Shown here: in pieces, positions 24,897 to 39,673 of the stretch
How positions within the stretch are numbered: position 1 is the stretch's first letter
Layout of the letters: each line of letters begins with the position of its first letter
Sequence record: MK327940.1
Length of the DNA: 64,000 nucleotides
Reading direction: 5' to 3' (one strand)
Source of the DNA: Escherichia phage vB_EcoM_G29
Program-made: the position numbers and the translations under genes
Notes under the pieces: model-generated
Told to the model about the DNA's origin: nothing
The model's database searches: none
What the model saw: the letters and a program-made list of their open reading frames with translations, nothing else

Positions 24897-24950
24897 TCCT
24901 CATGTTATGTCAGTAAGACTACTATAACACAACACGAGGGACTTGTAAAC
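24897..24950. repeat. 54-bp dispersed repeat copy 1 (early promoter plus leader); copy 2 at 40821-40874
   Basis: 53 of 54 nt identical (tcctcatgttatgtcagtaagactact[a/g]taacacaacacgagggacttgtaaac). Confidence 0.9.
24921..24950 (-). promoter_or_regulatory. early promoter (GTTTAC-N18-TATAGT) for the alt.-3-position ORF
   Basis: Minus strand GTTTAC overlapping the stop of the Alt paralog, TATAGT 18 nt downstream, leader with GAGG before ATG. Confidence 0.6.
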
Positions 24951-27007
24951 TACATCTTGAACTTTTTAGACATTCCGTTGATGTTAACCAAAGAAGCTAA
25001 GATTTGAGAAACTTCGTTTTCCTCTTCTTTTGATTCTTCTACAAGGAATTGATTAAATCCAGCCATTGGACGAACTTCACCAGTTTCCATTAGATGGTCG
25101 CCATCATATACTGATTCTTCTAATTGTTCAGAAGGAGGAACGATTGTACCTTCGATTAGATACTTGTTATAAGCAGTTTCTTTCATAAAGTAAGTACTTA
25201 CTTTATTAATCTTCAGTAAAATTCCACGTGGTAGAATAACTTCAGCTTCTGACGGAAATCCTGATAAATGACCCGGAACGATAACTTTGATTCGCTCAGC
25301 TCCTTTAATTACCATACCCACGCTAGTTTCAGCATCTTCATTAGCATATGTAGAATGACTACCCATATGCATCAAATCTTCTGCATCAACGGAACCTTCT
25401 CCTTCACCAGAAAATACTGCGCCGGAATCATCTAGAGCCATATAGTTTTTACCATGCTCACCGAAGATATTTGGTTTAAGCGATGTGGATACGAAGTTCT
25501 TGAAATAGAACATTTTATTTTCAATGTTATGACGCAAAGTTTTAAAGGTAACTTCTTGTCCACGGTAAAGTGTAGTTCCTGGAGGAAGAACTGAACCTTT
25601 AGCGAATGCAGAATCAAGCGTCTCAATATGTTTAATAGCTCGTTCCATATATTCTTCACGGGTAGAATCTGGTTTACCCAAAAGGAACGAGTTCATTTCA
25701 ACATATGAATCTGCACAATAATCTTCAATTACATCAGATTCAGCTTGAGTTAATCCTTTTGGAGTTACTTCAGTGCTTGCGTATTCATATGCCTGAGCAG
25801 CAGATTCATTAATCAATTTATAAATGCCATTCATGACAAATTGAATAATAGCTGTCTTTTCATCTGGCGTAGCTTTAGAACCTTTAACCAAATCATTGAT
25901 AATTTTCTTAATAACATCAAAGCTATTAGAAATATTAATATCAGCAAGATCGCTTAAAATTTTATCAGTCTTATAATCAAAGAATTCTTTATTCTTTAAA
26001 TATTCTTGAGAACCTTGATATGTTATATCGCTCTGTAACTTGATAGATGGATCACGTAAACGTGCATGGGCTAATGCAATATGATTTCGGAAGCTTTCGA
26101 GTTCATAATCACTAGATTTAAAACGAGAAGCGCTTCTCATACCGCCTATAGCTCCTTTGCTGAAGTTTGAACCAATTTGAATAACGCCAGAGTTCATTGG
26201 TCCTTCTGCTTTATACACCGGAACTTTAGATTCAAACTCTTGATATTTCTTAGCAGCGAAGCTATCACCCTGAAGTGAAGCATCAACAGTAGAATATTGA
26301 GCTTGTGCTGCTAATCGACGACTAATTTTAGTTTTCTGAATAACAGCTTGGTCCGTGCGCTTATCATTTTCTAAAGCAATAGAAGCAGCAACAGCAACAG
26401 CTTTAGGAACAGCATTACCTGTTTTAACATCTACATAAACATCACCAACCTTTGATTCAACTTTTGTGAATAACTCAGTTGAAATAGGAGGTACACCTGG
26501 AATGTCTTCTAAATTGGCATTTTTACGATAAACCATAATATATGCGTACTTTTTATCATAATCCCAGATTTCCTTTAAAAGAACATATCGACCTGCTCCT
26601 TTAGTACGTACTAAACGGTCAGCAATAACTTGCATTTGACGAGCAGCGCCATTTGTTTTACTCTTTAGTACGCGGAATAAGCATGCATCAATTTTATACT
26701 GTTTCATTGTTTGAAGAGCAGTATCAAAAACAGCGTTAATGACGCCAATTGGATTTCCACCCAAGTTTCTAAGTTTAACCAGTGATAATTTCTCGTTGAC
26801 ACCTATCATTACGATATGCATCATTTTATCGCCCGGCTTAACGTTTTTATTTGTATCACCTCCAGAGGTGTATGTACAAAATCTAAATCCAGGAAGCACG
26901 CTTTCTTCGCCGGCTTGAATAGCAAAAATTTGAGGTATTTTATGCTTAGGATTTAAGTTAACAACCGGCGCCGAAGCGCCGTCAAATAATTCTGTAATAA
27001 GTTCCAT
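24950..27007 (-). CDS. Alt-like ADP-ribosyltransferase paralog (685 aa)
   Basis: Shares the alt N-terminus (MELITELFD...CTYTSGGDTN...KIDAC...GRYVLLKE.WDYDKKYAY) and R / S-T-S / E-x-E ART motifs (LYRGQ, FVSTSL, SEAEVILPRG); central region divergent. Confidence 0.85.
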   Translation of the reverse strand: MELITELFDGASAPVVNLNPKHKIPQIFAIQAGEESVLPGFRFCTYTSGGDTNKNVKPGDKMMHIVMIGVNEKLSLVKLRNLGGNPIGVINAVFDTALQTMKQYKIDACLFRVLKSKTNGAARQMQVIADRLVRTKGAGRYVLLKEIWDYDKKYAYIMVYRKNANLEDIPGVPPISTELFTKVESKVGDVYVDVKTGNAVPKAVAVAASIALENDKRTDQAVIQKTKISRRLAAQAQYSTVDASLQGDSFAAKKYQEFESKVPVYKAEGPMNSGVIQIGSNFSKGAIGGMRSASRFKSSDYELESFRNHIALAHARLRDPSIKLQSDITYQGSQEYLKNKEFFDYKTDKILSDLADINISNSFDVIKKIINDLVKGSKATPDEKTAIIQFVMNGIYKLINESAAQAYEYASTEVTPKGLTQAESDVIEDYCADSYVEMNSFLLGKPDSTREEYMERAIKHIETLDSAFAKGSVLPPGTTLYRGQEVTFKTLRHNIENKMFYFKNFVSTSLKPNIFGEHGKNYMALDDSGAVFSGEGEGSVDAEDLMHMGSHSTYANEDAETSVGMVIKGAERIKVIVPGHLSGFPSEAEVILPRGILLKINKVSTYFMKETAYNKYLIEGTIVPPSEQLEESVYDGDHLMETGEVRPMAGFNQFLVEESKEEENEVSQILASLVNINGMSKKFKM

Positions 27008-27010
27008 GAT

Positions 27011-29062
27011 TTATCCTTGAACGAACTTGTAAGGCATGTTTGTAATATCTATGCAAGACGCAATAATTCCAAGAGATGATTCTACTTTCTGTTTAACATT
27101 TGATGAAACAAATGATGCAAAGTCAACTCTATCTTCTATATCACCTGTCATTGTAACTACTTCGCCGGTTTCCATTAAACGGTCACCGTCATAAATTACT
27201 GATTCGGTGAGTTCTTCGGTGGTCATAACTTCAGCTTGAATAAGCTTGTTGTTAGTTTTGACTGTTCCATCATTGTAAGATGCATCAGTTATTTTATTAA
27301 CTTTGACCATTAATCCACGTGGCAAAATGACTTCCATTTCATTTGAAGGCGCTAAACTTCCACCGGGTAAAACAACATTGACTTTATCAGCCCCAGTAAT
27401 AACCCATCCAATTCCGACTAAATTATCGCTAGAATTAACAAGCCCTTCATCATTTTTATCGATAGAAATGTTTAGACGCTTTTCATCTGGTAAAACACCA
27501 ACAGCTGAATCAGTCATCCAAGTACCAAAAATGTTTGGATATAATGATGTTGATACAAAATTTCTAAAATAAAAAACTCGATTTTTTACCATTGCTTCGT
27601 ATATTGAAGGTAACATTCGTTGTGAACGATACAAAGTAATACCTTTTGGTAATCGTTCACCATTTTTAAAGGCTGAATCTAAATTATCAATAGCTTTTTC
27701 TATGTCAGATGCTGTCAAAATACTTGTACGCTCATCTGGATTATATAATCCCAAAAGAGCATTATTTATGTCTACATATCCTGAACCTACGTATTCACGA
27801 ATTCCGCGTTTTTGTGCTGGTGTGTATTTAGATGAATCTTTATTTTCGACTATAGGATGTAATGACCATCCAGCTGTAAGAGCATATCCACGTAATTCTC
27901 TTCGAATAATCTTTGTTTTTATTGCATTCCAAGAATTTTGTACTAACTCATTTGCAGCATCTTGGTTTAAATGCGAATGTTTGTTAATATTTCTTTCAAA
28001 CCAAGCACCTTTATATTTTTCTAAAGTATTATCGACGATAGAAGCAATAGTTTCTAAAGTTTTTATTGAAGTAATAGATTCTTTTCGTAATTTTTCTAAA
28101 GCTTTATTTTTTATTTCTGCATTAATAATGGATTCTTTATCTTCAGGAATTATAGAAGCTTCTCTGAATGCCATCCCAGCTGTAACACTGCTAAGAGCAT
28201 TCTCTAGTGCAAATCCTGAAGTAGAAATTACCGTTAATTCATTAGAATCAGAAATTAAAGGCGCATCAGCGGGTTTATTTAATTCTGCTGCTGAAGCCTC
28301 AAATTTTTGAAACATCGGTGTTTCAAATCTAGAAGATTCCAATGACTGACTTTGTGCAATTGCTCTACGGGAAATTTTAACTTTAACGATTACAGCTTGG
28401 TCAGAACGTTTATCATTTTCTTGTGCAATAGATGCTGCAATTGCCTCATTTTTGGTTACTTGAGCTCCGGTATCTTTATTGATATAAACATCACCGACCT
28501 TCGATTCAACTTTAGTAAAGAGCTCGGTACTAATTTCCGGAACTCCTGGAATGTCTTCTAGTGATACATTTTTGCGATGTATAAGAATATATGCATACTT
28601 TTTATCATAATCCCAGAGTTCCTTAAGAAGGACGTATCTGCCACCTGAACGACTACGGATAAGTCTATCAGCAATAACTTGAATTTGTCGAGCTTGATCA
28701 GCGGTTTTAGACTTAAGAATACGAAGCATACAAGCATCAATTTTATACTGACGCATTGTTTGCATTGCAACAGTAAAAACTGAATTGATATAATTAATTG
28801 GGCTTGGACCAAGACCTTTTAATTTAGCAATTGAACCTTTAGCGGTTAATGTAAAAGGAACAATATGCATCATTTTATCGCCCATTTTTAAATCGCGATT
28901 AGTATCACCTCCAGATGTATAGGTACATAAACGAAAGCCTGGTTGTTCAATTGCATCATCAACATGAACTGAAAAAATTTGCGGTATTTTCTTCTTTGGA
29001 TTTAAGTTTGTAATCGGAAGAGTAGTATCTTCGTCAAATAATTCTGTAATAAGTTCCATCAT
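27011..29062 (-). CDS. alt: Alt ADP-ribosyltransferase, head-packaged (683 aa)
   Basis: 683-aa ORF adjacent to gene 30 as in T4; ART motifs LYRSQ, FVSTSL, NEMEVILPRG; late TATAAATA upstream. Confidence 0.9.
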   Translation of the reverse strand: MMELITELFDEDTTLPITNLNPKKKIPQIFSVHVDDAIEQPGFRLCTYTSGGDTNRDLKMGDKMMHIVPFTLTAKGSIAKLKGLGPSPINYINSVFTVAMQTMRQYKIDACMLRILKSKTADQARQIQVIADRLIRSRSGGRYVLLKELWDYDKKYAYILIHRKNVSLEDIPGVPEISTELFTKVESKVGDVYINKDTGAQVTKNEAIAASIAQENDKRSDQAVIVKVKISRRAIAQSQSLESSRFETPMFQKFEASAAELNKPADAPLISDSNELTVISTSGFALENALSSVTAGMAFREASIIPEDKESIINAEIKNKALEKLRKESITSIKTLETIASIVDNTLEKYKGAWFERNINKHSHLNQDAANELVQNSWNAIKTKIIRRELRGYALTAGWSLHPIVENKDSSKYTPAQKRGIREYVGSGYVDINNALLGLYNPDERTSILTASDIEKAIDNLDSAFKNGERLPKGITLYRSQRMLPSIYEAMVKNRVFYFRNFVSTSLYPNIFGTWMTDSAVGVLPDEKRLNISIDKNDEGLVNSSDNLVGIGWVITGADKVNVVLPGGSLAPSNEMEVILPRGLMVKVNKITDASYNDGTVKTNNKLIQAEVMTTEELTESVIYDGDRLMETGEVVTMTGDIEDRVDFASFVSSNVKQKVESSLGIIASCIDITNMPYKFVQG

Positions 29063-29082
29063 AGCCTCTCTAGTGTTTATTC

Positions 29083-29090
29083 TATTTATA
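29083..29090 (-). promoter_or_regulatory. late promoter TATAAATA for alt
   Basis: Minus-strand TATAAATA about 21 nt upstream of alt ATG. Confidence 0.55.
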
Positions 29091-29096
29091 AAATTA

Positions 29097-29112
29097 AAGG
29101 CCCGAAGGCCTT
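29097..29112 (-). terminator. hairpin terminator after ligase operon
   Basis: aaggcc-cgaa-ggcctt perfect stem ending at the stop of ORF 29112-29300. Confidence 0.5.
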
Positions 29113-29300
29113 TAGTAATCTAGTGGTAAGAGAGTACGATATATTTCAAACTTTGGTCCTTTTTCATAGGCATCAAATGTTTCTGTAAATTTATTATAAG
29201 CGTATGCATCTACAAATTCGAGAATGACTTGTGATACAGAAGTAGAAACATCTCCACCTTCTTTTTGAGCAATGACAATTGTTTCTAAGTAAGCTTTCAT
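29112..29300 (-). CDS. hypothetical small protein, 62 aa, translationally coupled to DNA ligase
   Basis: ATG overlaps gene 30 stop (ATGA); hairpin terminator directly downstream. Confidence 0.5.
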   Translation of the reverse strand: MKAYLETIVIAQKEGGDVSTSVSQVILEFVDAYAYNKFTETFDAYEKGPKFEIYRTLLPLDY

Positions 29301-30760
29301 AAACCAGTTACCTCATGAAAATCACCAAATACATCCTCGAATGTATTAGCTTTAGTTTTATCTTCACGTAAACGAATCGCAATCGGAAGAAATAATTTAA
29401 CGTAATCAGTGCGGCCATCAGATTTTAACCAACCGTTGCATTCGCACTCTAGAATTTTTCCAATATAATAATTTTGGTTTTCCATAATGCGAGTACGGTC
29501 AAGTTCATGCGATTTTACACCGGCTTTATCTTTTAAGCCTGAACCAGCATTTACCTTAATTTTTCCACACTCTGATTCAAGAATAAATCCACCCGCTTTA
29601 GTAGGGTCTTTACGGTGAGGATAAATTCCTACAATTTTTAAATCAACATCAATTACTTCTTTAAATTTATAGAGATTTTTTGAACGAGCATTTTCCCACA
29701 ATCCATCGGTATTTTTGAGAATAATACCTTCAAGACCTTGGTCAATATACTTTTTATAAATTACCTTAGCTTCATCTAGGTTATTTACTACCTGGTTTTC
29801 AATTAAAATTACTTTATCATAACCTGATGTCATTTGTTCTAGTTTAGAAAAACGTACATCATATTTCAAACGAAATGCAGGAAGACCGTATATTTCTACC
29901 AACGGGACATAATCCCAGACCTGAAACTTCATGCATTGAGCTTCTTTTTCAGAAATGGTTCCCTTTAAAGATTTATTGGCGATGCCATTAGATGCAGTAC
30001 GTGATTCAGCTACTTCGGCGAATTCTTTAGCTTTACTAATTTCAGGATAAGCATCAAAAAGAAAATCTAGGCCTTCTGGCTCCTTTTCAACTTGCTCATG
30101 GTATACCAATTCGCCATCAATTAACACACCTTCTGGATGAATCTGGCGAGCTTCTGTAGTCATTTTGATTAACTCTTCCTTAAGAAGATCTAATCCTAGA
30201 TATTCATTACCAGCTCGTGATAAAAGACGAACATCATCTAATTCATCACCTCTGACTTCAGCAAAACACCGAGCTCCATCAGCTTTTAACTGGGCAAAGG
30301 CTGGAAATTTGATATTCTTATTAATGCCTTTTTCATCATAAGAACTTGCAAGCATTTGAGGTTGTTCAGGAATTAAACCTGGCCAAACTTTGTTTGCAAT
30401 AGATACTGAAGCACCGCATTCAAGGTCTCGCATCATCACCCGACGCAAAACTTCAACATCATCTTTTTTACCGTCAGTAATATATCCAGTTAATTCCTCA
30501 ATTGCCGCATTTCCAGTCAATTTCCGAGTAGCTAACGTGAATTCAATGAAGTCAAGCATATCGGTAAGAGTCAACATTCCAAAACTCTGGGTAGCAATAC
30601 CCGGTTTAGGCCATTTCTTGATATAATACTGTAACCCACGAGAATAAGTCAGACGATATACTCGTTTAAGCAATTCATTATCTTTATTCTTTTCAAGAAT
30701 TGCTTGCTTCTGCTTAGTTGAACCAATAGATGCTATTTCGTTCAGAATTTTAAGAATCAT
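29297..30760 (-). CDS. 30: ATP-dependent DNA ligase gp30 (487 aa)
   Basis: 487-aa ORF with adenylation motif KADGAR; T4 gene 30 length and position. Confidence 0.95.
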   Translation of the reverse strand: MILKILNEIASIGSTKQKQAILEKNKDNELLKRVYRLTYSRGLQYYIKKWPKPGIATQSFGMLTLTDMLDFIEFTLATRKLTGNAAIEELTGYITDGKKDDVEVLRRVMMRDLECGASVSIANKVWPGLIPEQPQMLASSYDEKGINKNIKFPAFAQLKADGARCFAEVRGDELDDVRLLSRAGNEYLGLDLLKEELIKMTTEARQIHPEGVLIDGELVYHEQVEKEPEGLDFLFDAYPEISKAKEFAEVAESRTASNGIANKSLKGTISEKEAQCMKFQVWDYVPLVEIYGLPAFRLKYDVRFSKLEQMTSGYDKVILIENQVVNNLDEAKVIYKKYIDQGLEGIILKNTDGLWENARSKNLYKFKEVIDVDLKIVGIYPHRKDPTKAGGFILESECGKIKVNAGSGLKDKAGVKSHELDRTRIMENQNYYIGKILECECNGWLKSDGRTDYVKLFLPIAIRLREDKTKANTFEDVFGDFHEVTGL

Positions 30761-31026
30761 TGTTCATCCTTTAGAGTTTGGTTTACAGCTCTATTATAAA
30801 TCAATTCATCATTAAGCTCAGTCAAAGACCTGTGGTACGTGGTTCTAACTTTATTTCCTTGCATCCAGTGCTTGACGTAAATGAAACCTTGCTCTACACA
30901 TTTTTTAAAAATTCGTTCGTCTTTTTGAGCTCGGAATTCTGGATTGCATCTAAAAAATTGATTTACGTGACCGTAATCACGTGTAGTATTACCTTCATTT
31001 TCATAAATAGTATGAACAACAAACAT
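30757..31026 (-). CDS. hypothetical protein, 89 aa (positional equivalent of T4 30.1)
   Basis: ORF whose stop overlaps the ligase start. Confidence 0.65.
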   Translation of the reverse strand: MFVVHTIYENEGNTTRDYGHVNQFFRCNPEFRAQKDERIFKKCVEQGFIYVKHWMQGNKVRTTYHRSLTELNDELIYNRAVNQTLKDEQ

Positions 31027-31880
31027 TAGAATGCTCCTTGGAAAATATTATCACCACTACCACTAGTAAGTCTATTAAAATACCCTGCGTCGCCAGGCTT
31101 AATATAACTCCACGTATGGAATGGATGCATCTGATGTGAGTGTGTATAATATGGATGATATGGATTATAAGGATTAAATCCAGGAGTTCTCCAAGTAGTG
31201 TTCCAACGAAAAGAATCGTTTTTAATCATCTTCTCAATTACATCTTTTATAACTTTTTCACTATCAAAACTTTCTTTATTTTCCTTCGATGGAAAAAGCT
31301 TATTCTCTACATCATTCCATGTATAAACTCGCTGTGCAGTTTTTGGAATACTGTCACGTTCCCCTCGAGCCATCCAATAAACAGGAACATTTAATATTTC
31401 ACTCGCGTGATCGCAGTGGTGAGCGAGATCGTCAATATAACAAATTACGTTATATTTCTCTTTTGCCTTTTTGAACAACTCTTCTTTTGAAGAATCATGA
31501 CCACACATCAATACTTCTGAGAAGGCACCAGGAAAAAGAGCATTCAAATTAAATTGACGATTCAGCAGAGCGTCAATAGAATCACCCAATGCTGTAACAG
31601 CTACAAAATTATAATCTTCTTTTAATTTGTTAATTACACACAGGGCATCTTTATATGGAGACAAGTAACGAATAAAATCTGAACGATTGTATTTTTCAAT
31701 TAACTTGACGCCAAGTTCTTCATCACAATTAAAGAGTTTACCAGGAGAAATAAATTTCTCATCTTGGATCATTTTTAAAATATGTTCTAACGGAAGATTA
31801 TATTTCTGAGCAAAATAAGGAAGGCCTGATTGCCAGCTTAAACATACTCCATCAATATCAGTTAAAATAGTAGGCTTCAT
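31026..31880 (-). CDS. HAD-superfamily hydrolase-like protein, 284 aa (positional equivalent of T4 30.2)
   Basis: N-terminal motif ILTDIDGV (HAD motif I DxDG); His/Tyr/Pro-rich C-terminal tail. Confidence 0.7.
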   Translation of the reverse strand: MKPTILTDIDGVCLSWQSGLPYFAQKYNLPLEHILKMIQDEKFISPGKLFNCDEELGVKLIEKYNRSDFIRYLSPYKDALCVINKLKEDYNFVAVTALGDSIDALLNRQFNLNALFPGAFSEVLMCGHDSSKEELFKKAKEKYNVICYIDDLAHHCDHASEILNVPVYWMARGERDSIPKTAQRVYTWNDVENKLFPSKENKESFDSEKVIKDVIEKMIKNDSFRWNTTWRTPGFNPYNPYHPYYTHSHQMHPFHTWSYIKPGDAGYFNRLTSGSGDNIFQGAF

Positions 31881-32335
31881 AGAGAGTCTCTTAATAGGTT
31901 TAACACATCAATAAATTCAGCTTCGGTTAATATTGTATCATCTTTTGTTAGACCACTAGCCATGCTGTGCTTCAAAACTTTTCCTTTCGAGGCGTGTAAT
32001 GCATCACGAAAGCCCTTGTTTTGGATCGCTGCTTCAAAATATGCATTTGTGTATAATTCTTTCCATGCTGGGGAGTATCTTGAAAACGGAACTCCAAGCC
32101 AGAAGAGGGTCCCACGGTCCTGAGCTCTAGCATAAGACCTTCCAGCTTGTTGGGCGGCAAGCCCGGATAACCCAAATATACGACGTTGTTGTTCAGCATT
32201 TTTCACCTTGCATCCTTGGAGGAATCCTTCAAGACCTCCGAATTGAATACCATCCATGACGAAAGGCCATTGGGCGAAATTACTTAATGCACACGATGGC
32301 CATCTAAAATTGCTTCTAATCTCTAACTCAGACAT
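31877..32335 (-). CDS. NADAR (YbiA/DUF1768)-family protein, 152 aa (positional equivalent of T4 30.3)
   Basis: Signature LSNFAQWPFVMDGIQF...LEGFLQGCK resembles NADAR core (SNF..WP...DG..F.S.E..FQ..K); track start is TTG 32341, ATG at 32335 used. Confidence 0.7.
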   Translation of the reverse strand: MSELEIRSNFRWPSCALSNFAQWPFVMDGIQFGGLEGFLQGCKVKNAEQQRRIFGLSGLAAQQAGRSYARAQDRGTLFWLGVPFSRYSPAWKELYTNAYFEAAIQNKGFRDALHASKGKVLKHSMASGLTKDDTILTEAEFIDVLNLLRDSL

Positions 32336-32534
32336 TTTCAATACTTATAATTTCAACATCAGCCCAATGACCATAGCAAGGAAGACGAAATTCAACTGGC
32401 CAGTTAGGGTCCTTTTCTAATATAATAGACTTAACTTGTGGTTCTTCATGTTCATCAGTATATGGATTTTTATCTGTTACTTTATATGTGACCTTAATGT
32501 ACTGAATTCCAAAAATCTTATTAATTATATTCAT
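32328..32534 (-). CDS. hypothetical protein, 68 aa
   Basis: ORF with ATG start, operon-packed in 30.x block. Confidence 0.55.
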   Translation of the reverse strand: MNIINKIFGIQYIKVTYKVTDKNPYTDEHEEPQVKSIILEKDPNWPVEFRLPCYGHWADVEIISIENV

Positions 32535-32728
32535 ACTAATTCCTTTAATCCGTAGATAGGAGATAATTCATCGCCCATACGAAGGTCTTCATTTCCATCT
32601 ACCCAAGAAACAATATAAGCCTCTTTTATTTGAATACCACTCCATTTAAACGGAGGTAGAACCTTAGAAATTAATCCAGGTATACCAACTCCCTTTAATT
32701 CAACAGTTTGACCTAAAAAGAATTTCAT
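32531..32728 (-). CDS. hypothetical protein, 65 aa
   Basis: ORF with ATG start; stop overlaps next start. Confidence 0.55.
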   Translation of the reverse strand: MKFFLGQTVELKGVGIPGLISKVLPPFKWSGIQIKEAYIVSWVDGNEDLRMGDELSPIYGLKELV

Positions 32729-33015
32729 TAAAACCTCATCTGAAAACCGTGCGATTTAACATTACCGCCATTAATATCAGAACTATTAATTTCACGTGCA
32801 ATTGAGGGATCAATGTCAATTTCGCGATTGAGTTTAGTGATAGCTAAAGTATCGCGCCCATTTACAGTACGGAACTCTAAAGGGCAGACTACATTAACGT
32901 AGTTTTTAATCGATTCACTGGTAGGTTGCAAATGTGCAGGAAGGTCTTTAGGCGCCTTTGAGAAAACTACTTCGCAGAAGTTTTTACGGGTATCAAAATA
33001 AGTAGTCATAAACAT
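32728..33015 (-). CDS. hypothetical protein, 95 aa
   Basis: Track ORF extends to 33066 over a GC hairpin; ATG at 33015 with GAGG upstream preferred. Confidence 0.55.
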   Translation of the reverse strand: MFMTTYFDTRKNFCEVVFSKAPKDLPAHLQPTSESIKNYVNVVCPLEFRTVNGRDTLAITKLNREIDIDPSIAREINSSDINGGNVKSHGFQMRF

Positions 33016-33055
33016 AACATTTTCCTCAGTAAGGGGCCAAAGCCCCTCATTTATT

Positions 33056-33421
33056 TTAAATATCAAATTCGTTAAGAACTACATCAAAGATTGCTTCAAG
33101 ATGCTCAGGTTTAGCTCTGTTACTCAGAATATGACGAATCCAAGTTTTAACCAAAAGCTTGCGATTAACGCCATTCCAGCAAGGATGAGTCCCTAAATCG
33201 CGTTCACGGAAATCATCATCCAGAGCGATTTTAAAGTTGGAACCTTCCATCGTGATTGAAACCGTGATACCGTTTTCAAATCGCATATAAACGTAATTAG
33301 GAGTCATATACTGCTCAATTTCGCATACTGATCCATTTTGATGTTTCCAAAGGCAAATAGTATCAATAGAACCTGCAATACCATTAGAAACATATTTACG
33401 TTCAAAGTTGATGTAGTTCAT
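33056..33421 (-). CDS. hypothetical protein, 121 aa
   Basis: Track start is TTG 33433; ATG at 33421 with GGAG upstream; early promoter upstream. Confidence 0.6.
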   Translation of the reverse strand: MNYINFERKYVSNGIAGSIDTICLWKHQNGSVCEIEQYMTPNYVYMRFENGITVSITMEGSNFKIALDDDFRERDLGTHPCWNGVNRKLLVKTWIRHILSNRAKPEHLEAIFDVVLNEFDI

Positions 33422-33457
33422 TTTATTCTCCAAGATGTTTAATTGCGGTACAGGTAT

Positions 33458-33486
33458 ATAATATCATATCCTGTACCAAAGTAAAC
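33458..33486 (-). promoter_or_regulatory. early promoter (GTTTAC-N17-TATTAT)
   Basis: Minus-strand motif pair directly upstream of ORF 33056-33421. Confidence 0.5.
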
Positions 33487-33488
33487 AA

Positions 33489-33821
33489 TTATTTTACTAC
33501 TTTCCAATGCTGCATGTCAAGTTTACCAACTTTTTTCATCTTCTCAATTAAGCGTTCGGCACGTTGGCGAGCTGTAACATAATACCATTCACCTAATTCA
33601 TTTTGTTCAATTTTTCCAACGATTACTGTATTCAATTCATAAATCCAACCAGTAAAGAAATTATGAACTTGAATTGTAAAGGTGAAATCTGTTCCCATAC
33701 CTTCTGTTGTTTCTACTTCAATAATATCACCTTCAACTGCCATTAAGAACCACATAGTTTCATCATATTTACCATTGAAGCATTTAGTTTTAACTGCAGC
33801 GTTCAGATTAATCGTTTTCAT
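33489..33821 (-). CDS. hypothetical protein, 110 aa
   Basis: ORF with ATG start. Confidence 0.6.
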   Translation of the reverse strand: MKTINLNAAVKTKCFNGKYDETMWFLMAVEGDIIEVETTEGMGTDFTFTIQVHNFFTGWIYELNTVIVGKIEQNELGEWYYVTARQRAERLIEKMKKVGKLDMQHWKVVK

Positions 33822-33900
33822 TTTATTCTCCTTTGTTTGTGTAAGATAATACTATCACAAAGGAACCATACTGTAAACAACTTTATGCAATCTTTGGAAA

Positions 33901-33927
33901 ATAAAAAAGGACTCCCGAAGGAGTCCT
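33901..33927 (-). terminator. intrinsic terminator after small basic ORF
   Basis: Minus strand: aggactcc-uucg-ggagtcct followed by U6 run, 5 nt after stop. Confidence 0.7.
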
Positions 33928-33931
33928 CAAC

Positions 33932-34108
33932 TTATGCTTTCTGCTTACCAAAACGAGAAGCATCATCTCGAAGAACCGCACGTGCTCGGCGCATGATCTT
34001 CTCAACAGTTTGATTGATACGAGAGTTCGACCCACGCTTGTAGCCAGCGCGTTTAGAATCACCAACTTTCTTTTCAACTGCTTTCTTTGCTTTAGCTTGT
34101 TTTGCCAT
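33932..34108 (-). CDS. small highly basic protein, 58 aa (MAKQAKAKKAVEKK...)
   Basis: Lys/Arg-rich ORF; ATG at 34108 with AAGAGAA upstream; strong terminator directly downstream; track ORF extends to 34150. Confidence 0.55.
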   Translation of the reverse strand: MAKQAKAKKAVEKKVGDSKRAGYKRGSNSRINQTVEKIMRRARAVLRDDASRFGKQKA

Positions 34109-34506
34109 TATAAATTCTCTTTTAAATGAAAATGCAGGACTTATTGGCATTGCCTGCGCAAGCCCTCAAGGGGAACATAGGTTTTTTGATATTTAACGAC
34201 CAGGATAACCATAAACCCGTCATCATACCTTATAGCTCTTATCTGTTGCACACCGTTAGCTTAAAGGTTCCGGGTTCGATTTCTCGAGGATAAGATATAT
34301 ACTGATGGATATATAGGCCTTGAGGCGTACTCCCGATTGGCCATCACCTCGGGGTAGCATGCACTTGCCGCTATAAGAATAACATTCAAGAGGTACACCG
34401 TAAAACTGCCGGGGTCTTAAAACTATAATGATTCGCAAATCATTAATCAGACAGTTCGACGGCTCCTCGTTTTAACTTCACACTAAGGCAGTGAATCTCC
34501 AATAAA

Positions 34507-34755
34507 TTACTTCAGTGTTACCACAAAGTGACGAACTGCTTTTCGTGCAGCAGAAGCCAGAGGCTTAGCATATTTAAGTTCATCTTTTTCCTGAAGCTCA
34601 GCAGCTAATGCAGTTTGAGCAGGATTCAGATGTTTGAAATAACGCAGGATTTCAAGAGCTTCGGCTTCAACATCAATAGATGCGCCATAGTTTTCGTGAC
34701 CATTATTCCATGCGTTTCGTTGCAGTTCAAGAGCGTGTTGTAATTGTTTAATCAT
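34507..34755 (-). CDS. rIII: rIII lysis-inhibition accessory protein (82 aa)
   Basis: 82-aa ORF, T4 rIII length, directly downstream of gene 31. Confidence 0.85.
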   Translation of the reverse strand: MIKQLQHALELQRNAWNNGHENYGASIDVEAEALEILRYFKHLNPAQTALAAELQEKDELKYAKPLASAARKAVRHFVVTLK

Positions 34756-34902
34756 TTAAAAATTCTCGTTAGAGATTAAAACTCGGTAGTCACGTTCTTC
34801 TGAATTTCATCTTCTTTCGACAGATCTCTCAGTTGTAGACTACCACATAGAATTGTTCGGTTAACTTATTATTCCGACACCAAATTCATATTATTATTTA
34901 TA

Positions 34903-35238
34903 TCACTTATAAAGACACGGAATAGCTTTATAGTGACAGGTAACGAATTTTTGTTTAATTTCTTTTGGCTGCTTAAGACCCAGAGCTACAAAAGGGTGTG
35001 GAACGTTTCGAATTTGACCAACTGGAAGAGAAGTCAAATCACCAACTTCACAGAAACCTTCAGGAACATCAGGACCGACAGAGTGAACTACACACAGTTC
35101 AGGAACTTCACCTTGAACACGTTTACCGATAATAAGTCCTGATTCTGTAACTTCTTCATCACCGGCTTGTGCAGGTTCAGAAACTAAAATAACATATTCA
35201 CCGACAGCACGAATTGGTAGCTGTTGTACTTCAGACAT
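34903..35238 (-). CDS. 31: co-chaperonin gp31 (GroES functional analogue, 111 aa)
   Basis: 111-aa ORF, T4 gp31 length and position; MotA-box promoter upstream. Confidence 0.9.
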
Positions 35239-35268
35239 CGTTTTTCCTTTTTGTTAACAGATGAATTA

Positions 35269-35295
35269 ATAATAACAAATAATTCTTAAAGCATT
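35269..35295 (-). promoter_or_regulatory. MotA-dependent middle promoter upstream of gene 31
   Basis: Minus strand reads AATGCTTTA - 12 nt - TATTAT upstream of gene 31 ATG. Confidence 0.6.
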
Positions 35296-35603
35296 TATTT
35301 ACCAATAAATTGGAGCAAATGCTCAACTTTCATACCATTAACGGAAATCAATTTGTCAATAGAAAAACCTCGCCATGCACCAAGTTCAACATCAAATACT
35401 GGAATCATATCAGTAGATTCTTTCCGAGTAGATTCAGTCAATTTACCAGTTTGCATGGTTGGCATAAAGTCAGCATCGCGAGTACCTTTCATAACACGAA
35501 TAGTACCATCAGACTTTTCAAAAACTACGTTTGAAACACCCATGGACAATTTAGTTTTCAAAATTTCACGAATTGCTACTTTTTGTTCAGTCGTCAGTTT
35601 CAT
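35295..35603 (-). CDS. hypothetical protein, 102 aa (positional equivalent of T4 31.1)
   Basis: ORF with ATG start. Confidence 0.6.
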   Translation of the reverse strand: MKLTTEQKVAIREILKTKLSMGVSNVVFEKSDGTIRVMKGTRDADFMPTMQTGKLTESTRKESTDMIPVFDVELGAWRGFSIDKLISVNGMKVEHLLQFIGK

Positions 35604-35840
35604 TTATTTACCTATTACAGTTTTAATATGAGTTGTTCCACGTTCTTTAAGAGTGGAAAGTAATTTTTGGCATTTTTCTAAATCAGATTTCCAACTATGT
35701 GGTCTATCAATACAAACCCAGTTTGACTTATAATACTGCTTCCATTTAGAGAAAAAATACTTCTTATACTCTACAGCAAATGAAATGTTCTCGTTGGAAT
35801 AAGAACTAATTGCTGTGAGCTGTACCAAACGAAATTTCAT
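35604..35840 (-). CDS. hypothetical protein, 78 aa (positional equivalent of T4 31.2)
   Basis: ORF whose stop overlaps next start. Confidence 0.6.
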   Translation of the reverse strand: MKFRLVQLTAISSYSNENISFAVEYKKYFFSKWKQYYKSNWVCIDRPHSWKSDLEKCQKLLSTLKERGTTHIKTVIGK

Positions 35841-36421
35841 TATTCACCACAGAATTCGTTGATATTTTCCCAGTTTAACTTATTTAAGTTTTTCTTAGGA
35901 ACATTAAACACTTCAATACCTGCATTTCGCAGAATATCATCCCAGCCAGGTTTATTTTTATCGTATGTTTCACAATAAACCAGCTTTTTAATTCCAGATT
36001 GAGCTATTGCTTTTGCACAATCTGGGCAAGGAGAAAGTGTTACATACATAGTAGCACCTTCAATTGAAGAACCGTTTCGTGCAGCAAACAAAATCGCATT
36101 TAGTTCAGCATGAATTTCATTTTTAGACGACCATTCAGAGTGCGCGCTACGATGTTCTTTCGCCAATACAAAACGATCAGTTGAACCAAACGATACACAT
36201 TCAGGCTTATGACCTTGAATGATAGTATGTTTAGGCTTATTCAGCAACCAACCTTGCTCAGCAGCATAATCACAGCAGTTCACACCACCTGCAGGTGAAC
36301 CATTATATCCAGTAGAAATAATACGTCCATTCTTTTCAATTACTGCTCCTACTTTCCAGGAGCAACATTTTGATTCTTGTGATACTAAATATGCAATTTG
36401 AAGTACTGTACTCGCTTTCAT
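35840..36421 (-). CDS. cd: dCMP deaminase (193 aa)
   Basis: Zinc-binding cytidine/deoxycytidylate deaminase motifs HAELNAI and PCPDCA; T4 cd length. Confidence 0.95.
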   Translation of the reverse strand: MKASTVLQIAYLVSQESKCCSWKVGAVIEKNGRIISTGYNGSPAGGVNCCDYAAEQGWLLNKPKHTIIQGHKPECVSFGSTDRFVLAKEHRSAHSEWSSKNEIHAELNAILFAARNGSSIEGATMYVTLSPCPDCAKAIAQSGIKKLVYCETYDKNKPGWDDILRNAGIEVFNVPKKNLNKLNWENINEFCGE

Positions 36422-36756
36422 TTCATAATCACCAGATAAGCAGATTTAGCAGTTTCAACACGATAAATTTCGTGACGAAGTTTAGTTATACTTTTAATAA
36501 CAGAACTAATTATATTCTGCCCATCTTTAAAGCGGTTTTTCTTATCAATAAAAATTGCACCAGCCATCTTTTTGTGAAGCTCAACTGGATACTTCGTCAC
36601 AATAATAGCATCATACACAGAAGGATGAATACTATTCACTAGAGTATCGTTCATTAAAGTTATTCTAATGAACTGTGCTGTTTCAGAGTCAAGCGCTCTA
36701 TGATCGCCAGTATCATTTTCAAGACAATTATCAATTATATCAGTTAAATTCATCAT
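36418..36756 (-). CDS. hypothetical protein, 112 aa (cd.1-like)
   Basis: ORF overlapping the cd start. Confidence 0.6.
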   Translation of the reverse strand: MMNLTDIIDNCLENDTGDHRALDSETAQFIRITLMNDTLVNSIHPSVYDAIIVTKYPVELHKKMAGAIFIDKKNRFKDGQNIISSVIKSITKLRHEIYRVETAKSAYLVIMK

Positions 36757-36989
36757 AGTACGCCATACACCCTTTGTGCTTCAACTAATCCATCAAAATC
36801 CAATTTGAGATGTGTTATTTGGTCACCATCACCTGGATTCACAATTACTAATACCGAACGAGGAGTTTCGGTAATAACACGAACCGACGTTTCAGGAAAT
36901 CGTTCAGAAACCTTATTTACCAATTCTTGAGCAAATAGTTTAACTTTTTCTTGGAATTCTTTAACAGTAATTGGTTTTTCGCTTAGCAT
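36753..36989 (-). CDS. hypothetical protein, 78 aa (cd.2-like)
   Basis: ORF with ATG start, overlapping neighbours. Confidence 0.6.
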   Translation of the reverse strand: MLSEKPITVKEFQEKVKLFAQELVNKVSERFPETSVRVITETPRSVLVIVNPGDGDQITHLKLDFDGLVEAQRVYGVL

Positions 36990-37498
36990 GTTGATCCTAG
37001 CTCCTTACTTTCAACATTTTTAACTAATTTGACAGAAACTAATTCAGCATCTTGGGTAATCATTACCGGACCTTCTTCATGCTCTTCAAGATATTCTAGA
37101 GCTTTCTTTTTAGCTTCTTCCTTCGTATCAGTTTGAGCATAGATATAGAACATACAACCAGTAATACCTACTACTTTCCACTTAATTTCTTTATCAGTTT
37201 TAATTTCAAATTTACTTACAGAATCATCTTTTTGAACTTCTTCGAAAAAAGAATATTCTAACATATAAGCAATTGAAAATAACGGGCTAACTTTATAGGA
37301 TTCACCCATTACATCAACAGCTTTATACCAACAATCATCAATTTCACGTTTAATGCTAATAACATTTTTCGCAGGATCTATTTTTACTTTAAATGAATTT
37401 TCCCCAATAAACTGGGCAATTCGTTTATTAGCCCCCGCAAGTTTCATTAAAAATATCTTTATATCCAGCTTTAAAGCGATAAACCTTATCTTCTTCAA
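36983..37498 (-). CDS. hypothetical protein (cd.3-like); start ambiguous, possible frameshift relative to promoter-proximal ATG at 37511
   Basis: Track ORF starts at TTG 37498; the SD-preceded ATG at 37511 opens a 27-codon frame ending just after a C5 run (37432-37436); first in-frame ATG at 37447. Confidence 0.55.
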   Translation of the reverse strand: MKKIRFIALKLDIKIFLMKLAGANKRIAQFIGENSFKVKIDPAKNVISIKREIDDCWYKAVDVMGESYKVSPLFSIAYMLEYSFFEEVQKDDSVSKFEIKTDKEIKWKVVGITGCMFYIYAQTDTKEEAKKKALEYLEEHEEGPVMITQDAELVSVKLVKNVESKELGSTC

Positions 37499-37541
37499 AC
37501 CATTCGCTCATTTCAATTTCCTCATTTGTTTTGGTAGAGCT

Positions 37542-37571
37542 ATAATATCACAACTCTACCGTAAAGTAAAC
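37542..37571 (-). promoter_or_regulatory. early promoter (GTTTAC-N18-TATTAT) upstream of cd.3-like ORF
   Basis: Minus-strand motif pair followed by GAGG and ATG at 37511. Confidence 0.5.
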
Positions 37572-37573
37572 TA

Positions 37574-37849
37574 TTAAATTGCTTTGAATTCTGATGTCTG
37601 TGATTCAAAGCGAATGTCGCCTTTGATAACTAGCTCAGCATCAAGACCAAATACAACAATGATATGCGCGGAACCTGGATACAACGTAATGGCAATAGAA
37701 TCCACCTGGTCTGGAAGCAAAGCGTTCAATACATGAGTCACTTGAGCGTGGATTCGAAGTTCAGCTGCATTATCAAGCTTTTCAAACATGTTATTAGCGA
37801 TAATTTGGCTAAACACTACTTCTACGATTTTAGAGTAAGTCGGAAACAT
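37574..37849 (-). CDS. hypothetical protein, 91 aa (cd.4-like)
   Basis: Track start TTG 37879; ATG at 37849 with GAGGT upstream. Confidence 0.55.
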   Translation of the reverse strand: MFPTYSKIVEVVFSQIIANNMFEKLDNAAELRIHAQVTHVLNALLPDQVDSIAITLYPGSAHIIVVFGLDAELVIKGDIRFESQTSEFKAI

Positions 37850-37851
37850 AT

Positions 37852-38052
37852 TTACCTCACATAATTTTCTTCGAGCCAATCAATAACATCCAAAGCGTTA
37901 TCAAAAGTTGCGCCATCTACTTTGTCTTCTGTTTCATAATCAAGAACATCTAGGCCTACTCTTCCGTCAACAATAGGCCATAGACAAAATAGATATTTCT
38001 TTTCTTTTTCAATTTTATCACAAAGACGATAAATCTTTTCTAGGTTATTCAT
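37852..38052 (-). CDS. hypothetical protein, 66 aa
   Basis: ORF with ATG start. Confidence 0.5.
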   Translation of the reverse strand: MNNLEKIYRLCDKIEKEKKYLFCLWPIVDGRVGLDVLDYETEDKVDGATFDNALDVIDWLEENYVR

Positions 38053-38241
38053 ACGTTTTCCATGGTAAAGGCAGTTTAGTTTTCTTTACTGTTAGTTCAA
38101 CATCAGGATTCTTTTCTCTTAATTTAAGGCATTCCTCCCATGCTCTATTTTCACTAGTGAATACACAAAATTGCCCATTACTAGTACCGACTAAACCACT
38201 ATTTACAATAATAATAGCCCAAGTTTCATGATGCAAAGCCA

Positions 38242-38242
<1 letters not shown>
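38045..38242 (-). CDS. hypothetical protein, 65 aa, coupled to pseT
   Basis: ATG at 38242 overlaps pseT stop (TAATG); track ORF extends to 38272 into pseT. Confidence 0.5.
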
Positions 38243-39442
<1,200 letters not shown>

Positions 39443-39446
<4 letters not shown>

Positions 39447-39673
39447 TTATTTTTCTCAACCAATGATTGAATATAATCATGCAGGTCTTTAGATGCTTTA
39501 CCCCACTTATTTTGATATTCATTTTTGAGATTAGCGCGTGATTGAGCTAATAAAACATCATTAGTTGGAGGTAAAGATTCTAATCGTTGAATCTGTCGTC
39601 CATAAATCATTGCAGCCATCTCGGATTCATAAATTAATCCTTTTAGATGTTCAAATTGATACCATGAAATCAT
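39443..39673 (-). CDS. hypothetical protein, 76 aa
   Basis: ORF with ATG start. Confidence 0.55.

Follow-up and report, generated by a model that had tools for sequence, protein, structure and literature searches.

What does the small open reading frame wedged between genes 30.4 and 30.2 of a T4-like phage do for the virus that carries it? The question is raised by a 64,000-nucleotide stretch of DNA from Escherichia phage vB_EcoM_G29 (record MK327940.1; hereafter the window), in which a 152-aa ORF had been singled out as a candidate ADP-ribose hydrolase of the NADAR family, lying in the 30.x block about 3 kb from a pair of Alt genes. It was proposed to serve either as a counter-defence against DNA ADP-ribosylation or, alternatively, as an editor of the marks made by the Alt-type enzymes of the phage itself. 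The ORF is real, reads from an ATG at 32335 to a TGA at 31879-31877 on the minus strand (Table 1), and contains the motif on which the original prediction relied, LSNFAQWPFVMDGIQFGGLEGFLQGCK, as residues 17-43 of its product. An alternative TTG start (32341), located two codons upstream of the ATG, would yield a 154-aa version; the ATG is the annotated start in the records of both T4 and vB_EcoM_G4500. The predicted location was equally accurate: the ORF is flanked by 30.4, 30.2, 30.1 and the DNA ligase gene, and the nearer of the two Alt-like ORFs ends 2.8 kb away.

The window comes from a Tequatrovirus. A megablast search with positions 31000..33500 retrieved 724 phage records, nearly all of them from T4-like phages of Escherichia, Shigella or Yersinia, and the best record was that of vB_EcoM_G4500 (Tequatrovirus, 100% identity). 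Direct alignment extended this identity to 14.3 kb (25177..39500, 100% identical save within alt, where the lengths differ by 177 nt). The genes around the ORF follow the T4 order, namely alt, alt.1, 30 (DNA ligase), 30.1, 30.2, 30.3, 30.4 ... 30.9, rIII, 31 and cd, and the ORF occupies the place of gene 30.3 in the 30.4-30.3-30.2-30.1-30-alt.1-alt series. Its product has the same length as T4 gp30.3 (NP_049816) and aligns with it without gaps, 149 of the 152 residues being identical and the remaining three substituted (A47V, H114Q and M125I relative to T4). The ORF is thus the orthologue of T4 gene 30.3 (adfN). Genes 30.4, 30.3 and 30.2 are tightly packed on one strand: the first 8 nt of 30.3 (32328-32335) are also the last 8 of 30.4, and the stop of 30.3 shares an ATGA with the start of 30.2, an arrangement that likely reflects translational coupling.

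Table 1. Coordinates, in the window, of gene 30.3, its functional codons and the neighbouring genes discussed in the text.
Feature	Position	Strand	Remark
adfN / gene 30.3 coding sequence (152 aa + TGA stop), very probably a phage-clade NADAR ADP-ribosylglycohydrolase	31877..32335	(-)	
ATGA overlap, 30.3 stop / 30.2 start	31877..31880	(-)	from ORF coordinates; T4 annotated likewise
Glu36 codon, catalytic glutamate	32228..32230	(-)	+ strand TTC, read as GAA
Lys43 codon, ADP-ribose-contacting lysine, seven residues past the glutamate	32207..32209	(-)	+ strand CTT, read as AAG
His123 codon, last beta-strand	31967..31969	(-)	+ strand GTG, read as CAC
C-terminal alpha-helix, codons 138-152, intact	31880..31924	(-)	helix 138-151 in the model
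Alt-like ADP-ribosyltransferase genes, tandem	24950..27007 and 27011..29062	(-)	PF03496 matches
Gene 30.2, downstream neighbour, predicted HAD-fold hydrolase resembling 5'(3')-deoxyribonucleotidases	31026..31880	(-)	context only

The assignment of the product to the NADAR (DUF1768/YbiA-like) superfamily is less immediate than the motif suggested. In Pfam the protein matches PF08010 (Phage_30_3, 'Bacteriophage protein GP30.3') over the full length of the model (E=1.6e-69), and in PHROGs it falls into phrog_652 (function unknown). The strength of the PF08010 match, together with the presence of the family in 1510 phage records (see below), puts a chance resemblance well out of reach. The check that had been put forward, a direct match to the Pfam NADAR model PF08719, was negative at E<=0.01 and even at E<=10, and an NCBIfam search returned no match either. 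The missing PF08719 match is explained by Pfam modelling the phage clade separately, as PF08010, and not by a lack of kinship. Indeed, all 65 full-length homologues gathered from a search of 5.8 billion proteins match PF08010, and 24 of them also match PF08719 (best E=1.5e-7). One homologue (P0076) bears both domains among its precomputed annotations, and several metagenomic members of the family came with the name 'YbiA (DUF1768 family)' from their source. A search of PDB sequences with the single protein gave only a non-significant match to YbiA (E=1.3), and with the profile built from the 65 sequences, E. coli YbiA (2b3w) was found at E=0.011, the alignment covering the motif block. As far as sequences go, the NADAR link of the ORF product is therefore only transitive, passing through other members of its family. 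The fold carries the argument further: an AlphaFold2 model computed on the 65-homologue alignment (mean pLDDT 93.7, pTM 0.89) shows the NADAR alpha+beta fold, in which small beta-hairpins surround a helical core on its flanks. As the original prediction had proposed, a comparison with YbiA was made, and it was positive: the top three Foldseek matches in the PDB are YbiA, 8bau (the complex of a Phytophthora NADAR with ADP-ribose) and 8bat (the Geobacter lovleyi NADAR), all other matches having a probability of 0.05 or less. Membership in the NADAR superfamily thus holds, on the strength of the fold, the family profile, the 24 homologues and the conserved residues and C-terminal helix described next.

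The residues expected of an active enzyme are all in place. The E36 column is invariant in the 65 homologues and aligns with E48 of YbiA; the K43 column is conserved in at least 90% of them and aligns with K55 of YbiA; and the spacing of the two residues is that of E88 and K95 in the E. coli C7 NADAR. H123, which is also invariant in the 65 homologues and sits in the strand formed by residues 120-123 of the model, occupies the last-strand position that splits the NADAR clades, with Glu in the YbiA type, Asp in the DarG1 type and His in the phage gp30.3 type (PMC11125620, PMC11543638, PMC12945103). The importance of these features is known from the T4 protein (PMC11825919): the E36A variant rescued only partially and served as the inactive control in vitro, the K43A variant likewise gave only partial rescue, and a truncated AdfN had reduced activity. 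[quoted passage not shown] These 15 lost residues correspond to the segment of the C-terminal helix, which is present in the window allele. The three substitutions A47V, H114Q and M125I all lie outside the columns that are invariant or at least 90% conserved in the family.

What the T4 protein does is documented. Schuller et al. (2023) established that NADARs hydrolyse guanine-linked ADP-ribose and act as the DarG1 antitoxin. In a 2024 study, T4 gp30.3 was purified and found in vitro to clear guanosine-ADPr from DNA and to leave thymidine-ADPr in place (PMC11125620), and in a 2026 study the substrates of the phage NADAR, described as a bare core domain, included guanine- and not cytidine-linked ADP-ribose, again with no activity on thymidine-ADPr (PMC12945103). 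Johannesman et al. (2025), who named gp30.3 AdfN (anti-DarT factor NADAR), used recombination with RB69 to locate in gene 30.3 the determinant by which T2 and T4 resist DarTG1 and reported that (i) T4 and T2 deleted for adfN no longer form plaques on DarTG1 hosts, (ii) ectopic expression of adfN rescues RB69, (iii) purified T4 AdfN strips ADP-ribose from DarT1-modified DNA, (iv) no association between AdfN and DarT1 is detected and (v) T4 AdfN has no effect on DarTG2 (PMC11825919). The T2 allele, 98% identical to that of T4, is functional (PMC11825919). Finally, in a transposon screen of T4, insertions in 30.3/adfN were lost specifically on DarTG1 hosts (bioRxiv 10.1101/2025.11.20.689424).

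Given 98% identity and the intactness of all functional features, the T4 mechanism can be assigned to the ORF with high confidence, and the window allele, despite its three substitutions, would be expected to act like T4 AdfN. The ORF product would then be a minimal, core-only N-glycosidase of the NADAR fold, expressed in the course of infection from the 30.x block, which is non-essential. Once the host DarTG1 system is triggered, guanines of the phage DNA would be ADP-ribosylated at N2 by DarT1, which would block replication; AdfN would cut the bond between guanine and ADP-ribose, releasing ADP-ribose, restoring the guanine and allowing the phage to replicate. Mimicking the host DarG1, AdfN would behave as an 'orphan antitoxin', acting on the modified DNA without binding the toxin, and the thymidine ADP-ribosylation made by DarT2 would not be reversed. 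We consider it very probable that the ORF, as an adfN orthologue, encodes a guanine-ADP-ribose N-glycosidase countering DarTG1. The counter-defence half of the original prediction is therefore supported by the published enzymology and DarTG1 phenotype of a 98% identical protein. It is correct but not a new discovery, as the gene, the fold, the enzymology and the counter-defence role were already published between 2023 and 2025 for the T4 protein.

Gene 30.3 is an orphan, with no paired toxin gene: there is no DarT1 toxin gene beside it, Pfam scans of 30.4, 30.5, 30.6, 30.7, 30.8, 30.2, 30.1, the ligase and alt.1 gave no toxin family, and Pfam matches to ADP-ribosyltransferases were confined, in this region, to the pair of Alt-like ORFs. 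This distinguishes it from DarG1 (E. coli C7; G. lovleyi, 8bat), which is a toxin-paired NADAR. Further differences are that the G. lovleyi DarG1 is 219 aa long, with N-terminal extras forming an electropositive channel (PMC12945103), whereas the ORF product is a core-only protein, and that DarG1 has a catalytic Asp in the last strand where the ORF product has His123. Moreover, T4 AdfN cannot stand in for DarG1 in uninfected cells (PMC11125620, PMC11825919). AdfN-Bas32 and AdfN-Bas60, from T5-like and Vequintavirinae phages, are guanine-specific NADARs that counter DarTG1 like AdfN, and each stems from another NADAR branch through independent co-option; unlike T4 AdfN, they neutralise DarT1 in uninfected cells, without a T-even context. 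T-even phages themselves have other anti-DarT factors serving the same purpose of DarTG escape, AdfA (gp61.2) and AdfM (Tk.4). The escape variant AdfA(R164H) of RB69 associates with the DarT1 toxin and does not act by DNA repair (PMC11825919), and AdfM is a macrodomain protein directed against the thymidine modification of DarTG2 (bioRxiv 10.1101/2025.11.20.689424). The closest of all comparisons remains T4 AdfN itself, which shares with the ORF its neighbours, length, E36/K43/H123 triad and C-terminal helix and differs only by the three substitutions noted above, all conservative.

The simple picture of a free-standing antitoxin is, however, incomplete, and some T-even-specific context is needed: T4 gp30.3 gave uninfected cells no protection from DarT1 (PMC11125620), and the full effect of T4 AdfN is seen only in T-even infection, T5 and Bas25 being weakly rescued (PMC11825919). 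The authors of the latter study propose a phage-encoded partner. It is tempting to look for it in the next gene, 30.2, which is labelled hypothetical and whose product found no match in Pfam. Its family has invariant residues D8-x-D10, K132 and D150-D151; its AlphaFold model comprises a confident core (residues 1-195, pLDDT above 90) and a C-terminal tail that is disordered (about residues 225-284); its best Foldseek matches are HAD hydrolases, including the deoxyribonucleotidase cdN (2jao, E=9e-8); and its family profile matches 2jao at E=0.026. The model thus identifies gp30.2 as a predicted HAD-fold, deoxyribonucleotidase-like hydrolase. That it is the T-even-specific partner AdfN seems to need is nonetheless improbable in our opinion. 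The adjacency of 30.3 and 30.2 is retained in Acinetobacter phage ZZ1 and absent in Yersinia phage phiR1-RT, and tblastn searches with gp30.1, gp30.2 and gp30.4 found nothing in six metagenomic loci harbouring distant gp30.3 homologues. Two candidates encountered near such homologues were discarded: a 254-aa downstream neighbour in a 308-kb metagenomic contig is unrelated to gp30.2, and a 'phosphatase' two genes away from the homologue in Vibrio phage D479, macrodomain-like by eye, is not a gp30.2 homologue and has no Pfam match.

Could the removal of ADP-ribose from DNA be only one facet of a broader activity? In vitro, removal of G-ADPr from RNA has been reported for members of every NADAR family (PMC12945103), and the 1510 phage records found to carry the family (see below) represent a distribution perhaps wider than DarTG1 pressure alone explains, so that the main natural substrate might be guanosine-ADPr in RNA, or soluble immune molecules derived from ADP-ribose. 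We regard this as unlikely: the sole phenotype found in the genome-wide T4 screen and with targeted deletions is DarTG1-dependent, de-ADP-ribosylation of DNA was shown directly for T4 AdfN (PMC11825919) and a soluble substrate has not been demonstrated for the phage gp30.3 clade.

The other role initially envisaged for the ORF product, the reversal of ADP-ribosylation made by the Alt-type transferases of the phage, draws on the neighbourhood. The two full-length Alt-like products (685 and 683 aa, 42% identical) are encoded on the same strand at the short distance given above, and the 30.3-30.2-ligase-alt neighbourhood is kept in the distant Acinetobacter phage ZZ1. This proximity is all that speaks for it: Alt is annotated in the T4 record as an RNA-polymerase, that is a protein, ADP-ribosyltransferase, whereas the NADAR activities reported in the studies consulted are all on nucleic-acid bases (guanine, and cytidine in some clades) and not on protein (PMC11125620, PMC12945103). 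In addition, 30.3 is dispensable without DarTG1 and essential only in its presence (PMC11825919; bioRxiv 10.1101/2025.11.20.689424), and the gene also exists away from alt, near Acb1 in phiR1-RT and alone in metagenomic jumbo-phage contigs. The substrate chemistry and the DarTG1-specific phenotype lead us to reject the editing of Alt marks, the chance of which we judge very small.

The Alt-like genes deserve two remarks of their own. At this place T4 has a single alt accompanied by short alt.-1/alt.-2 remnants of an old duplication, versus two full-length genes in the window. Besides, the alt gene of vB_EcoM_G4500 contains 177 extra in-frame nucleotides with respect to the window alt (27011..29062), at about 27962..28016 of the window, and the two alignment blocks around this difference have 55 nt in common, as would fit a duplication or deletion mediated by a repeat.

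If guanine-ADP-ribose removal against DarTG1 is what adfN does, the window phage may still carry a copy that no longer does it. Broken, shortened or fused versions are common among its relatives, and that of RB69 is frameshifted. A decaying allele of this kind is nevertheless very improbable here: the product of the window allele has its full length of 152 aa, its C-terminal helix is complete and no conserved residue is changed. Only three positions, none of them conserved, distinguish it from the T4 protein that was assayed, and the functional T2 allele is in the same situation, likewise 98% identical to that of T4. We thus predict that the window phage resists DarTG1.

YbiA (2b3w), with which the NADAR/DUF1768 family was founded, is about 20% identical to the ORF product, and the SNF...W/P...DG...E..FQ..K block of motifs is common to both; YbiA is a riboflavin-intermediate N-glycosidase encoded in a LexA-controlled operon, and it has Glu at the clade-defining last-strand position. 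A housekeeping role of the same kind for the ORF product, clearing reactive intermediates of the riboflavin pathway as known for bacterial and plant NADARs, has a negligible probability even though YbiA is its best sequence match (alone and by family profile) and among its best fold matches, given that the Glu of the YbiA clade is replaced by His123, that a published tree places the phage NADARs nearest to the DarG1 type and that the phenotype is DarTG1-specific.

The value of assigning the ORF to guanine-ADP-ribose hydrolysis is practical, and it extends beyond the window. By tblastn, the gp30.3/AdfN family is present in 1510 of 50,697 phage records. About half of the 1510 show more than 80% identity and correspond to T4-like coliphages; the other half, below 60% identity, are myoviruses of Klebsiella, Aeromonas, Acinetobacter, Vibrio, Rhizobium and Ralstonia. 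Among the matches listed from these records, almost all are annotated 'hypothetical protein', including that in the closest record to the window. A functional annotation can now be given to the ORF and to many such entries, and it is worth noting that the correct function was recoverable from a short motif by a sequence-only reading. Resistance to DarTG1 is predicted for phages with a full-length allele and sensitivity for those with a truncated one, which should be useful when choosing therapeutic T4-like phages. Shortened or fused gp30.3 products (P0004-P0007, P0016, P0017 and P0060; 126, 109, 107, 91 and 86 aa) were observed in many T4-like phages, some of them in complete genomes. The situation recalls the defective, frameshifted allele of RB69, and natural phages may thus often lose adfN.

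Two observations concern the annotation of the locus. The first is 30.3', an internal out-of-frame ORF of 75 aa annotated in T4, which in the window lies at 31972..32199 on the minus strand, inside adfN, and which is open in the window phage as well as in Bp7 and MN01, two phages of other genera. We judge it unlikely to specify a second product. Within 30.3', the window and T4 differ at six nucleotides, of which five alter the amino acids of 30.3' and only two those of the main frame, so that no selection for coding is apparent. It is thus probably not a real coding sequence. The second concerns Yersinia phage phiR1-RT (Tegunavirus; L009, 2217..3453), in which the gp30.3 homologue is next to neither 30.2 nor the ligase gene and is found instead beside a tRNA cluster, with acb1 (PF23474), an anti-CBASS gene, located two genes upstream of it. 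The CDS annotated for this homologue is shorter than the tblastn match, and its start was therefore probably mis-called.
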